A stretch of 25,280 nt of DNA from a virus (taxonomy: Duplodnaviria > Heunggongvirae > Uroviricota > Caudoviricetes): the IMG/VR virus record IMGVR_UViG_2713896907_000003, one strand, 5' to 3'. The notes below the pieces were generated by a model that saw nothing but the letters and a program-made list of their open reading frames with translations, was not told the origin of the DNA and made no database searches. Each line of letters starts with the position of its first letter. Position 1 is the stretch's first letter. Positions 19,929 to 23,870 of the stretch are shown here, piece by piece. The translations under genes were made by a program, and so were the position numbers.

Positions 19929-20422
19929 TGTTGCCCCCACAAACAGACTTCACGCTCAATCTCGCGGCGAGTCATCAGCCCTTTCCATTGCTTACCGCCA
20001 GCGTATGTCCAGCGCCGTAGCTGATCACATGCGCCTTTGATATCGCCCTGGTTTATTTTGCGAAGAAGCGTCGATGTTCTGAAATTGCCAGCGCCCACGT
20101 TGTAAACGAACGAGTAAAGAGCGCCGCGCGTTGTTTCCGGTATATCGACGTTGATGTACGGGTTAATTTGTCTGGCGACCGTGGCAAGGTCTTTATTCAG
20201 GAGGGCTTTGCATTCTGCTTCGGTATACGTTTTACCGGGCATGATGTCTTTTCCGGTGTGTCCGTGACATACAGTCCATACGCCAACGATATCTTTGTAT
20301 GGTATGTAGCTGACACCTTCCAGACCATCGTTACCACCTGGACCAGTGATGAGCACAGACGCTATGGCAACAGCCCCACCACCAATAGCAGCTGCAACAG
20401 CCTTGCGTAATGACGGCGACAT
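19925..20422 (-). CDS. R: SAR endolysin R (T4-lysozyme-like fold, phage-21 type)
   Basis: 165 aa; N-terminal Gly/Ala-rich weakly hydrophobic segment [20 protein letters not shown] (signal-anchor-release), then E..D..T spacing (E-9-D-6-T) as in T4 lysozyme; resembles R21 as recalled. TAATG overlap with S. Confidence 0.88.
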
Positions 20423-20628
20423 TATTCACCTCTCGCAGCCTTACGCTTATCTTCTTTAATCTTGAAATAAAGATTTGTCAGATACGTCAGCAGGCCAAAC
20501 AGCAGACTTCCCAGCACACCTATTGCCACCCACTGGGACGGAGAGACTTTGTCCAGCAGCTGCAGTAACCAGTATCCCGTCCCCACCGCTGACGTGGTGT
20601 ATGACACACCTGTTGTGATTTTTTCCAT
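20422..20628 (-). CDS. S: Pinholin S (phage-21 type, two transmembrane segments)
   Basis: 68-aa ORF with TMD1 [14 protein letters not shown] and TMD2 [18 protein letters not shown] and a basic C-terminus; sits directly upstream of the SAR endolysin. Confidence 0.85.
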
Positions 20629-20671
20629 CTGATGTATGTCTCCGTCACCGCCGACAGAAAATGAAAGTAAA

Positions 20672-20709
20672 GAAAAACAAAAAAGCCGCCAGTGTCACCC
20701 ACTGACGGC
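20672..20709 (-). terminator. Strong intrinsic terminator ~40 bp upstream of S
   Basis: Minus strand: 10-bp stem GCCGUCAGUG/CACUGGCGGC (one G-U), loop GGUGA, then UUUUUUGUUUUUCUUU. Confidence 0.6.
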
Positions 20710-21075
20710 CAACACCGGGAGCCGTGATTATGGCATTCAGGCTCTGCTAAAAATGCCAGATAACATTCCGGCTCCCCCCCTGATTCAGGTTATAAATGAC
20801 ACAATATCTTGACAACATCCGTCACTGTCTGTCAGAAAATGTACCGCCATATAGAAGCAACATGTGAAGTACATCTATCCTTTTGAGCCAGCACCTCTTC
20901 ACCGAAAGTCAGTGCTGGCTGTTTTTTTCCTTAATAAAGCATCTGTAACTGAAACAATCCGCATATTGATAATATATTGACAGGCATCATTGCTGTCTGT
21001 GAAAAATAAGTCTCTACAAACATATAAGGCCTTTTAGCCAGCGTCTTCTTTCAGGTCAGTCGCTGGCTTTTTTTA

Positions 21076-22917
21076 TTATGCTGCCGGTGCATTTATCTCC
21101 AGCACCAGACTTTCTATCTCAACGCCATACGCTGCATTTTTTGTAACATCCGTCAGCGTCAGCGCATTCAGTCCCAGTGTCAGACTGTCTTTTATAACCT
21201 GGAATGCCGGGCCAGCCACTCCATTCAGTTTCGGAGTAACCGTGGCACTGCCGGCGGTGAACACCAGCTCCAGCGCCTGCCAGTCGTTACTGTAGTTCCC
21301 GAATTCCCCCAGCTTCGTGTTTCCTGACTTCCTGTGGTGCATCAGATTCAGTTTGCCGTCGGTGGTCTGCGTAAAGTACGACATCAGGAACGGATCACCA
21401 GTCCCCGTCATCGTCACACCATCAGGAACAGGAGCGTCTGTGTACAGATAAAGCCCCAGTCCAAACTGGTTGTTTGTCAGAGCACCAGTCAGACGGAACT
21501 TACAGGTCAGCTTCCCTCCCCGGCTCAGCAGTGAGGATGCATTCTTCACCGGATGCGATAGTATCCAGCTTTTACCGCTCTCTTTGACAATTCTCAGTAC
21601 GCCATCCGATAACTGAACGCTGCCCCCGGTAATATTCCACCCCTGAGAAGCAACATCGCCGGCGGAGGCCAGAAGCGATATCGATTCCAGGGATGAGTCA
21701 TCCGGCGACGTAGAGCCACCTGCTGATGGTGTGTTCTCCGGTTTTACACCGGCAATAAATGCCTGTGAGCGCCCTGCCTGCGACAGGATAGCCGAGGCCA
21801 TTCTGTCTGCAATAATCCCACGCCGTGCCCAGGCACTGAAATGGCTCGCACGGTCTGCTGACGTCCAGTTGGCCGATGTCCGGGATGCCGCCCCGTAATA
21901 ACCGGCAGCCACGATATCCGGATCTTCCGTCGGCTCATTCGTGGGCGTGTTTTCACCACTGCCATCTGTCATAAAAGGAACAAAGAAAATATTCTGTGCT
22001 TCCTTTCCTTTATAAGCGCCATACACCGCCTCATATTGTGTGGCGTACTTCTGTTTCCAGATGTATGTGGTGTCGCCACAAATCCACGGCACTTTTTGAG
22101 CGCTTCCACCATGACACTGCGCCGCCATACCGGCAAGGTCGCTACGGAACTGCTGCACCATCGACTGGAATGCTGCAGGCTGCTGAGCATAGCCAGCGTT
22201 TGTCATATCGAATTCACCCTGCATCCAGCATACCGCCAGCAGAACATTTTCAGGATTCTTCGCCAGTGCCGCTTTTGTACGCAGTATCAGATCCTGATAT
22301 AACGGCTTACCCACTCCCCAGCGCGCAGAGTTCTGGCTGGCCCCCGTAGCTTCACTGAATGTACCATCCGCCCCTGCTGTAAATGCTGAACCGCCACGGG
22401 AGCAGGGAACCAGCAGAATCCCGGCATTTTTTGGGATATACGGCAGCAGACGTTTGGCGATATGTAAGCCCTGTCCGACACACCCATACTGACCTTTGCT
22501 TAAATCTGCTTCAGGGTGACTGAACACACTCATATCCTGCACATCATGCAGACAATGATCTGCCGGGATCACATCGTTAAATACACATGCCTCTCCGCCA
22601 GGCGTCACCGTACTGCGACGTGCCAACTGCTTAATACGCGGATCAGGCGCATCATATGAATCAGGAAGAGGAATACCCTCACCATAAGACATGGCATTGG
22701 ACTGTCCGGCCAGCACGACCACGTAGTACCACTCCGGCTCAGTTGTGCCACTGACCACCACATCACCTTCTGCTGCAATCGCCTGCATCAGGGTATAAGG
22801 AGTTATGGCCACAGGGCTACCAAACGGCTGCCAGCCTTCTTTCAGTTTTTGCGTGAGCTTGTCCGCCAGATCTGATGGCGATGCTGCCCGCACAATATCG
22901 TAACGATTAATCGACAT
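21076..22917 (-). CDS. nanS: Phage sialate O-acetylesterase NanS-p type (SASA/DUF303 N-terminal domain, C-terminal beta-rich domain)
   Basis: Start trimmed to ATG 22917 (GGGAGA RBS): MSINRYDIVRAASPSDLADKL...; contains the LAGQSNAMS motif typical of sialic-acid-specific acetylesterases; occupies the post-stx position of Stx-phage late regions. Confidence 0.8.
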   Translation of the reverse strand: MSINRYDIVRAASPSDLADKLTQKLKEGWQPFGSPVAITPYTLMQAIAAEGDVVVSGTTEPEWYYVVVLAGQSNAMSYGEGIPLPDSYDAPDPRIKQLARRSTVTPGGEACVFNDVIPADHCLHDVQDMSVFSHPEADLSKGQYGCVGQGLHIAKRLLPYIPKNAGILLVPCSRGGSAFTAGADGTFSEATGASQNSARWGVGKPLYQDLILRTKAALAKNPENVLLAVCWMQGEFDMTNAGYAQQPAAFQSMVQQFRSDLAGMAAQCHGGSAQKVPWICGDTTYIWKQKYATQYEAVYGAYKGKEAQNIFFVPFMTDGSGENTPTNEPTEDPDIVAAGYYGAASRTSANWTSADRASHFSAWARRGIIADRMASAILSQAGRSQAFIAGVKPENTPSAGGSTSPDDSSLESISLLASAGDVASQGWNITGGSVQLSDGVLRIVKESGKSWILSHPVKNASSLLSRGGKLTCKFRLTGALTNNQFGLGLYLYTDAPVPDGVTMTGTGDPFLMSYFTQTTDGKLNLMHHRKSGNTKLGEFGNYSNDWQALELVFTAGSATVTPKLNGVAGPAFQVIKDSLTLGLNALTLTDVTKNAAYGVEIESLVLEINAPAA

Positions 22918-23029: not shown

Positions 23030-23514
23030 AAAACTCACAAGGAAAATGATAAGTAGAATCACAACTTTGATATATGCATGGTCCGGTGGCCGCCCCGGTG
23101 AATTCAGTATCAGCACCTGAATCCGCGCCCCCCAGTATTCCAGCCTGCTGATAACCTCTTACACATGGGGATTCGCCATACGGCAGTATTTCTAATAAAC
23201 AGTAAGTAAAAAAATCAAGCATTATTCAGACTGTTTCTTTTCATCACCGACCACCGTAATGTCACAATCCCACGCATCATCACACCATCAGCCAGTACCG
23301 ACATCAGACGCCCGGTGAAATCCACTGCCACCACCAGAAACAACATGATGACAGTCTGCCCAAAGCGTGCACTTTCCACAGATACTGCCCAGCGGTAACT
23401 GCAGAGCCTGCGCCAGTGGGTAACCAGCCTACGGAGGACGTCACACTGACTATCCCGTAAACCCATCCATGAAAAGCTTTATGGTTGATATGCACCGAAC
23501 GTGGCGCAGATATG

Positions 23515-23627: not shown

Positions 23628-23703
23628 TGGTGCCGACTACCGGAATCGAACTGGCGACCTGATGATTACAAGTCAGTTGCTCTACCATTGGAGCTAAACC
23701 AGC
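23628..23703 (-). tRNA. tRNA-like gene, aberrant (weak anticodon stem; loop CUUGUAA; isotype uncertain, possible pseudo-tRNA)
   Basis: 76 nt with perfect D-arm GCUC/GAGC, T-loop UUCGAUU and CCA end, but the anticodon stem pairs at only 3 of 5 positions and the T-stem has one mismatch. Confidence 0.5.
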
Positions 23704-23783: not shown

Positions 23784-23787
23784 CAAT

Positions 23788-23830
23788 AAAAAAAGCCACC
23801 GTTGCAACTTAAGAGTCACTAACGGCAGCT
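23788..23830 (-). terminator. tR'-like terminator immediately downstream of the late promoter
   Basis: Minus strand: 9-bp stem GCUGCCGUU/AACGGUGGC (two wobble pairs) with a 17-nt loop, then UUUUUUU; lies between the promoter and the first tRNA. Confidence 0.45.
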
Positions 23831-23837
23831 TACCTTC

Positions 23838-23870
23838 TAATTATGGCTAAATGGATAATTGCATGTCAAG
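23838..23870 (-). promoter_or_regulatory. Late promoter pR'-like (sigma70 -35 TTGACA, 18-nt spacer, -10 CATAAT) overlapping the 3' end of Q
   Basis: Minus strand: TTGACA (23869-23864), spacer tgcaattatccatttagc, CATAAT (23845-23840); position just after Q mirrors lambda pR' (established knowledge). Confidence 0.45.

Follow-up and report, generated by a model that had tools for sequence, protein, structure and literature searches.

The window (the whole stretch of DNA that was analysed, 25,280 nucleotides) carries the late region of a lambdoid prophage on its minus strand. In the direction of late transcription, the gene for the Q antiterminator (PF06530) is followed by the late promoter pR', three tRNA genes, an sRNA candidate, an esterase gene, a 447-nt intergenic region, the gene for a P21-type pinholin (PF04971) and that for a lysozyme-family endolysin (PF00959), with overlapping ORFs 3' of the endolysin gene at the position of Rz/Rz1. 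The element considered here, which consists of hairpins and a terminator, occupies the final 145 nt of the esterase-pinholin intergenic region. The features to which the analysis refers are as follows.

20422-20628, minus strand: gene S, encoding the P21-type pinholin, the first gene of the lysis cassette (Pfam PF04971, E = 1e-32)
20672-20683, minus strand: U-tract of the terminator, UUUUUUGUUUUU (from the sequence and the terminator scan)
20684-20710, minus strand: terminator stem-loop with 11 pairs (7 G-C) and a 5-nt loop, about -20 kcal/mol
20717-20776, minus strand: hairpin 1, a nested, imperfect hairpin of 60 nt, -26 to -28 kcal/mol
20789-20815, minus strand: TTGTCA-15-TATAAC, unsupported as a promoter (sequence, sigma-70 scan and match count)
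20809-20814, plus strand: a perfect TTGACA, overlapping and mirroring the minus-strand TTGTCA, 30 nt upstream of the PasA 5' end
20811-20834, minus strand: predicted bipartite PasB pairing site in the late-sense RNA, coinciding with the RIL-seq chimera coordinates
20844-20928, plus strand: PasA homologue (EcOnc51/52), antisense to the late operon (mapped through alignment A1; 98.8% identity)
20985-21077, plus strand: second, diverged PasA-like unit with an approximate 5' end, whose own terminator overlaps the esterase stop codon
21076-22917, minus strand: moron gene for a sialate O-acetylesterase, NanS-p-like (Pfam DUF1737, SASA and DUF6645; homology)
23786-23869, minus strand: genuine late promoter pR' by sequence comparison (TTGACA-18-CATAAT), its leader and tR'; tRNA genes lie 3' of tR'

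The intergenic region is widely shared. It is found at 95-98% identity in phage 434, H-19B, YYZ-2008 and 22 Stx1a-converting phages; in H-19B and other Stx1a phages, the same region lies 3' of stx1 and the esterase gene. The corresponding locus of the EPEC lysogen E2348/69 is 99% identical to that of the window (alignment A1), and that of EHEC Sakai Sp12 is 96% identical. The element itself is present in 699 of 5426 complete E. coli genomes, with a median of 4 and a maximum of 9 copies per genome. With respect to the neighbouring genes, the esterase gene (21076-22917, minus strand) has 76% identity to that of E2348/69 prophage PP2, and the adjoining intergenic sequence (20629-21075) has 99%, which points to a recombination joint close to the stop codon of the esterase gene. 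Immediately 5' of this gene, at the position that PasD occupies in EPEC, the stretch 23033-23211 (minus strand) matches the Rfam family STnc100 below threshold (43 bits against a gathering score of 47, E = 8e-8), and its resemblance to PasD2 is limited to the 3' 78 nt (83%).

The 114 nt of the minus strand from 20785 to 20672 have a predicted fold of -48.7 kcal/mol (z = -4.2), more stable than all 200 shuffled sequences, and fold into two domains, the nested hairpin 1 and then the terminator. The outer stem of hairpin 1 (GGGAGCCG/CGGCUCCC) pairs 20776-20769 with 20724-20717, and the inner stem (UGGCAUUU/GAAUGCCA) pairs 20758-20751 with 20738-20731. A previous sequence-only reading had described nested inverted repeats on the minus strand ending in the strongest terminator of the window, and both statements are borne out: the repeats and the terminator stand at the coordinates given there, and the terminator (20672-20710) ranks first in the terminator scans of both window halves. 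It has the form of an intrinsic terminator, with a G+C-rich stem-loop directly 5' of a U-tract on the late strand, and the pinholin ATG lies 55 nt 3' of the end of its stem-loop. The terminator is strongly strand-specific, with -20.5 kcal/mol on the late strand versus -13.4 kcal/mol on the opposite strand and a U-tract on the late strand only. Hairpin 1, on the other hand, is nearly strand-symmetric (-26.3 versus -25.7 kcal/mol), so that for this hairpin the comparison of strands is uninformative. An Rfam search of the element at gathering score gave no match, only tRNAs passing in the window, and a permissive local Rfam search of the element returned chance snoRNA hits alone, with E above 1.

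The sequence-only reading had also proposed that a minus-strand promoter makes this region a self-contained unit. The two hexamers do stand where it had placed them, TTGTCA at 20815-20810 and TATAAC at 20794-20789, but as a promoter the site is not supported: the spacer measures only 15 nt, a C occupies position -7, and a sigma-70 scan of the window with 16-18-nt spacers did not list it. A looser count, which accepted at least 10/12 matches and spacers of 15-19 nt, gave 13 sites in the window versus 6.5 +/- 2.6 in shuffled sequences; sites of this quality are roughly as frequent as chance would give, and TTGTCA-15-TATAAC is the sole minus-strand site of the 13 that combines the shortest spacer with the lack of a T at -7. 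Since TTGTCA is the mirror of the conserved TTGACA upstream of PasA, the promoter-like sequence is better assigned to the plus strand. Lacking a credible local promoter, the element does not stand as a self-contained unit. The promoter scan likewise listed no promoter-like site in the stretch from the terminator to S.

A strong promoter is found next to Q. The pR' promoter at 23869-23840 is the best promoter match in the window (11/12), and the tR' of the window lies at about 23786-23830. The curated record of phage 21 (OL657228) annotates the -35 of pR', the Q-binding elements (QBE), the -10 and the start site, and also a sigma-dependent pause element and tR', followed by tRNA-Asn. Compared with phage 21, the Q-proximal unit has a leader and terminator that agree at nearly every base and stand before the same tRNA-Asn; the -35 of pR' is identical whereas the promoter spacer is different. 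On this sequence evidence, the site at 23869-23786 is to be regarded as the real late regulatory unit. The differing spacer is also the location of the Q-binding elements of phage 21, and the Q of the window belongs to the PF06530 family. Further along, a tRNA-like gene at 23631-23703 (minus strand; 47 bits with the Rfam tRNA model) was missed by ARAGORN; it has mismatches in the anticodon stem, and phage 21 has an annotated tRNA-Thr there.

The element resembles this unit in layout only. When the element was compared by blastn-short with four pR'-tR' regions (those of the window itself, phage 21, lambda and phage 434), only chance matches of 8-9 nt were obtained (E at least 0.69), and the suggested pR'/tR'-type unit accordingly has no homology to any of them and lies 3 kb from Q. 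Nor does the element have a strong promoter adjoining Q: its candidate is 3 kb away from that gene and combines a 15-nt spacer with a C at -7. The idea of a Q-utilisation (qut) site fares no better at this distance: by inspection, the spacer AGATATTGTGTCATT contains no repeat like the annotated QBE of phage 21 (ATTGAGCA/AATGAGCA), and the proposed initial transcript AAUCAGGGGGGG contains no TAnnnT-like hexamer, that is, no -10-like pause element, although this inspection is a weak test because it takes the phage 21 elements as its yardstick and the Q of the window may use another QBE.

The sRNA genes already described for this intergenic region lie on the plus strand. In prophages of this type, pasA has been placed in the interval that separates the esterase gene from the holin gene (Zhu et al. 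2026); PasA converges on the esterase gene and is a homologue of EHEC EcOnc51/52 (Pearl Mizrahi 2021). Its published position is the minus strand of NC_011601 from 743499 to 743415 (major form) or 743264 (minor form) (Pearl Mizrahi 2021, Table S6). These coordinates map to 20844-20928 on the strand opposite to the element, with no overlap with the hairpins, so that identity of the element with PasA was ruled out. The second PasA-like unit matches the 3' extension of the minor, 236-nt form of PasA. The two units are repeated in tandem, antisense to the late operon, and each has a plus-strand TTGACA, a long spacer of 19-20 nt, (G)AAAAT and its own terminator. HnrS (EcOnc10-12), a multicopy sRNA of prophage late regions with up to nine copies, was also considered as the identity of the element and rejected, as it has no match in the window; in Sakai Sp12, it sits about 3 kb further along. 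The sRNA genes established here are therefore antisense to the late operon, and the hairpin/terminator element is not among them.

The two domains of the element differ in their distribution. Hairpin 1 is confined to the PasA/PasC-type module, accompanies the PasA/PasC promoter region in every case, and its module is present in only about a quarter of the close pinholin loci. Its fold is kept in 19 of the 21 sequence variants obtained from about 115 IMG/VR copies, one of which combines a G-to-A with a matching C-to-U change. No divergent homologues of hairpin 1 suitable for a covariation analysis were found among 5426 E. coli genomes and phage records, where all copies are at least 94% identical, and its conservation may, given this identity, reflect mere recent spread. 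The G-tract at the 5' foot of the hairpin (20776-20782, minus strand) varies in length and sequence among the IMG/VR copies, with length differences of 1-5 nt between common variants, and the 3' arm is almost invariant. Two copies that looked like mosaics proved uninformative: that of contig L190 (around 1880-1920), which has foreign upstream sequence, carries an apparent insertion sequence exactly at the G-tract, and a partial copy inside a 'DUF1737' CDS (H187) is a deletion derivative.

The terminator, in contrast, stays in place when the upstream gene is swapped. In the phage 434 record OL657226, the homologous stem-loop is already annotated 'terminator'. When 80 IMG/VR loci with near-identical pinholins were fetched and 83 loci were counted, a hairpin and T-run ending 46-56 nt before the holin ATG was present in 72 of the 83, whatever gene lay upstream. 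In an alignment of 38 distinct upstream sequences (A2), 91% of the cells in the terminator stem are paired, compared with 25-68% in slid controls; 6 of the 11 pairs are changed on both sides, and the covariation score is 0.38 versus 0.02-0.20 in the slid controls. Compensatory changes in relatives, the mark of a selected hairpin, are thus found for the terminator stem.

The pattern extends beyond close relatives. Across 70 distinct P21-type holin loci from species-representative genomes of many Enterobacteriaceae genera (36-100% protein identity), 48 have a terminator-like site on the coding strand within 160 nt upstream of the holin gene, versus 17, 16, 11 and 0 of 70 in control windows (Fisher p = 2e-7). 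Phage 21 has a long hairpin and U-run before S21 that is unrelated (non-homologous) to that of the window. Within this sample (loci L211-L290), the terminator-like sites cluster about 50-60 nt and about 115-125 nt before the start codon. At least two of the wider-sample loci have a Q-like reading frame whose end lies no more than a few hundred bases 5' of the holin gene, and the terminator at these loci may therefore be tR' itself; in phages without morons, the positional enrichment may thus partly represent the known tR'. P21-type lysis cassettes across Enterobacteriaceae thus regularly have a terminator immediately 5' of the holin gene. The tie to the phage-21-type lysis cassette drawn by the sequence-only reading is in this respect well founded, since the terminator recurs before the holin gene with compensatory changes irrespective of the upstream gene. 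Because it remains S-proximal when that gene changes, it is better described as the 5' boundary of the lysis module than as part of the moron.

Based on the results presented above, the hairpins and the terminator are real, and a second promoter, a pR'/tR'-type unit and a qut site are unsupported. The element is most likely a feature of an ordinary kind rather than a new RNA gene, its terminator having a structured region, hairpin 1, ahead of it. In lambdoid late operons, intrinsic terminators stop unmodified RNA polymerase but are passed by polymerase that Q has modified at pR'. Against this background, it is probable that the terminator is an insulator at the 5' boundary of the lysis cassette that Q can override; termination in vivo, read-through with Q and protection of the lysis genes are what we infer from its position and structure. 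The segment would form the 3' end of a late-strand transcript that crosses the moron region, including the PasD-like RNA, the esterase gene and the strand opposite PasA, and the esterase transcript would end at the terminator (20672-20710). RNA polymerase that started without Q, from moron promoters or weak intergenic promoters, would stop here, and consequently a lysogen would be expected not to produce holin, endolysin and spanin, while Q-modified polymerase from pR' (23869-23840) would read through, as at tR'.

Several observations favour this insulating role. The terminator is strong, canonical and top-ranked, its phage 434 homologue carries the annotation 'terminator', and a conserved, covarying hairpin with a T-run precedes P21-type holin genes. 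The absence of a promoter between the terminator and S in the scan and the presence of late-sense RNA upstream are consistent with it. So is the fall in expression across the intergenic region in E2348/69, where the DESeq2 base mean is 102 for the esterase gene and 3.5 for the holin gene (Pearl Mizrahi 2021, Table S2), although this fall could also stem from collision with convergent PasA transcription or from RNA decay. The insulator role leaves hairpin 1 unexplained; as a guess, hairpin 1 may be a structure that stabilises the 3' end of the terminated RNA or insulates its folding.

The first alternative is that the element is an independent small RNA gene, in which a weak local promoter would give rise to a structured RNA of about 100-120 nt ending at the terminator. 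The stable, non-random fold (z = -4.2) suits this idea, the U6 tail of the terminator would suit Hfq binding, and its multicopy occurrence, with 699 of 5426 E. coli genomes carrying a median of 4 copies each and at most 9, is reminiscent of known prophage sRNAs. In addition to TTGTCA-15-TATAAC, a second minus-strand promoter can be proposed, CAGACA (20830-20825)-17-GATATT (20807-20802), with a symmetric -10 region shared with a plus-strand promoter, and a 9/12 match, CAGACA-17-TATATT, occupies the corresponding minus-strand position of the first repeat unit. As promoters, however, the two candidates are weak, the former with 10/12 matches, a 15-nt spacer and no T at -7 and the latter with 8/12. 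The Hfq data also argue against such a gene. Hfq CRAC in EHEC Sakai lists the PasA homologues, and no late-strand EcOnc entry next to S in Sp4 or Sp12; Hfq RIL-seq in EPEC detected the neighbouring PasA and no sRNA on the late strand here. In these two studies, which covered few growth conditions, the element was thus not recovered with Hfq as an sRNA. The sole EPEC RIL-seq entry on this strand behaves as a target and lies upstream of the proposed start. Neither a match to an Rfam family nor, in a literature search for the element's own sequence, a paper printing it was found. An independent sRNA gene is accordingly considered unlikely.

The RIL-seq entry itself suggests another possibility, namely that a stable 3' fragment of the esterase/intergenic transcript serves as an Hfq-bound target or sponge of PasB, an sRNA that is encoded by another prophage and not in the window. 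According to the supplement of Pearl Mizrahi (2021), the late-strand intergenic RNA at 743494-743512, which corresponds to 20849-20831 of the window, forms chimeras with PasB, comprising 19 fragments under activating and 798 under non-activating conditions; the entry is RNA1 in 97-100% of its chimeras and has PasB as its one partner. This late-sense RNA maps upstream of the proposed start site of the element, and its presence on Hfq with PasB indicates that transcripts enter the element from upstream. In a duplex scan with a 40-nt sliding window, the best predicted pairing with PasB along the whole late-sense intergenic RNA (20834-20811) sits on the RIL-seq coordinates, with -23.6 kcal/mol versus a background of -12.6 +/- 3.9 kcal/mol, although shuffled sequences reached -27 kcal/mol. 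The sliding window was used because RNAduplex on the whole-length PasB and intergenic RNA gave meaningless long-range structures. A sponge of this kind is compatible with the insulator role. On the other hand, the pairing site is outside the hairpins of the element, the evidence consists of one partner in one study whose authors did not discuss it, and PasB is absent from the window. The probability of the sponge is therefore held to be small.

A broader version combines these two ideas: the terminated late-strand RNA might be a stable, Hfq-associated catcher of PasB, or an sRNA from a weak bidirectional promoter shared with PasA, and this too seems doubtful. In the catcher version, hairpin 1 and the terminator would act as a protective 3' domain, and such an RNA, if real, would mean cross-talk between co-resident prophages.

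It is still less probable, in fact very improbable, that the element acts at the DNA level, with the repeats as protein sites controlling the divergent PasA promoter, or that it encodes a small protein. Hairpin 1 does always lie beside the PasA/PasC promoter region and folds about equally on either strand, and phage 2B8 has a CDS annotation here, the plus-strand ORF 20636-20812 being annotated 'hypothetical protein'. However, the three nested stems are collinear, which speaks more for a folded single strand than for operator sites, and the terminator is strand-specific (-20.5 versus -13.4 kcal/mol, with the U-tract on the late strand only). The 1-5-nt length variation of the G-tract is not in multiples of three and would shift the frame of the ORF, which argues against a protein. 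Finally, a second late promoter with a qut site of another Q specificity is barely credible, as only the superficial layout, with hexamers resembling a promoter, a short structured stretch and a terminator, speaks for it, while the element has no homology to the four pR'-tR' regions compared, lies 3 kb from Q with a weak promoter and no visible Q-binding repeat or pause element, and the window already has a canonical Q-adjacent unit matching that of phage 21.

Returning to the insulating terminator, its relation to known systems can be described in three respects. Like the tR' of lambda, phage 21 and phage 82, it is a late-strand stem-loop with a U-tract between pR' and the lysis genes, and by analogy unmodified polymerase would be expected to stop at it and Q-modified polymerase to pass it. 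It differs from the tR' of the window in position, 3 kb further downstream and beyond the tRNAs, the sRNA candidate and the esterase gene, and in sequence, of which the two have none in common; where a phage lacks morons, the terminator that precedes S is probably tR' itself. Lambdoid morons are additional genes, inserted 3' of pR' together with a promoter and terminator of their own (Juhala et al. 2000, cited by Tree et al. 2014, PMC4104026). The present terminator agrees with that architecture in closing an accessory block (esterase and sRNAs) just before the essential lysis cassette, but differs in staying S-proximal when the upstream gene is swapped. With the PasA/PasC (EcOnc51/52) and AgvB/AsxR class, it shares the esterase-holin intergenic region and the multicopy occurrence in EHEC/EPEC prophages, whereas the sRNAs of this class are encoded on the opposite strand and converge on the late operon; PasA has no overlap with the hairpins, and no reported experiment places an sRNA on the late strand here. 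In addition, StxS, an sRNA from pR' terminated at tR' (Sy et al. 2020, PMC7547250), is a precedent for a short, terminated late-strand transcript as a functional Hfq-binding RNA; StxS, however, starts at a strong, constitutively active and mapped Q-adjacent pR', and the element has no comparable promoter or Hfq signal.

For annotation, these results imply that the late-strand hairpins should be described as a terminator rather than as a second late promoter or a qut site, and that the PasA-type sRNA genes of this intergenic region belong on the other strand. The survey of holin-proximal terminators fits the established biology of Q antitermination and leaves it unchanged. In general, an insulating terminator before the lysis cassette would help to explain how accessory genes, such as stx1 in H-19B-type phages, the NanS-p esterase gene and several sRNA genes, can be transcribed inside the late operon of a lysogen without leakage into the lysis genes.
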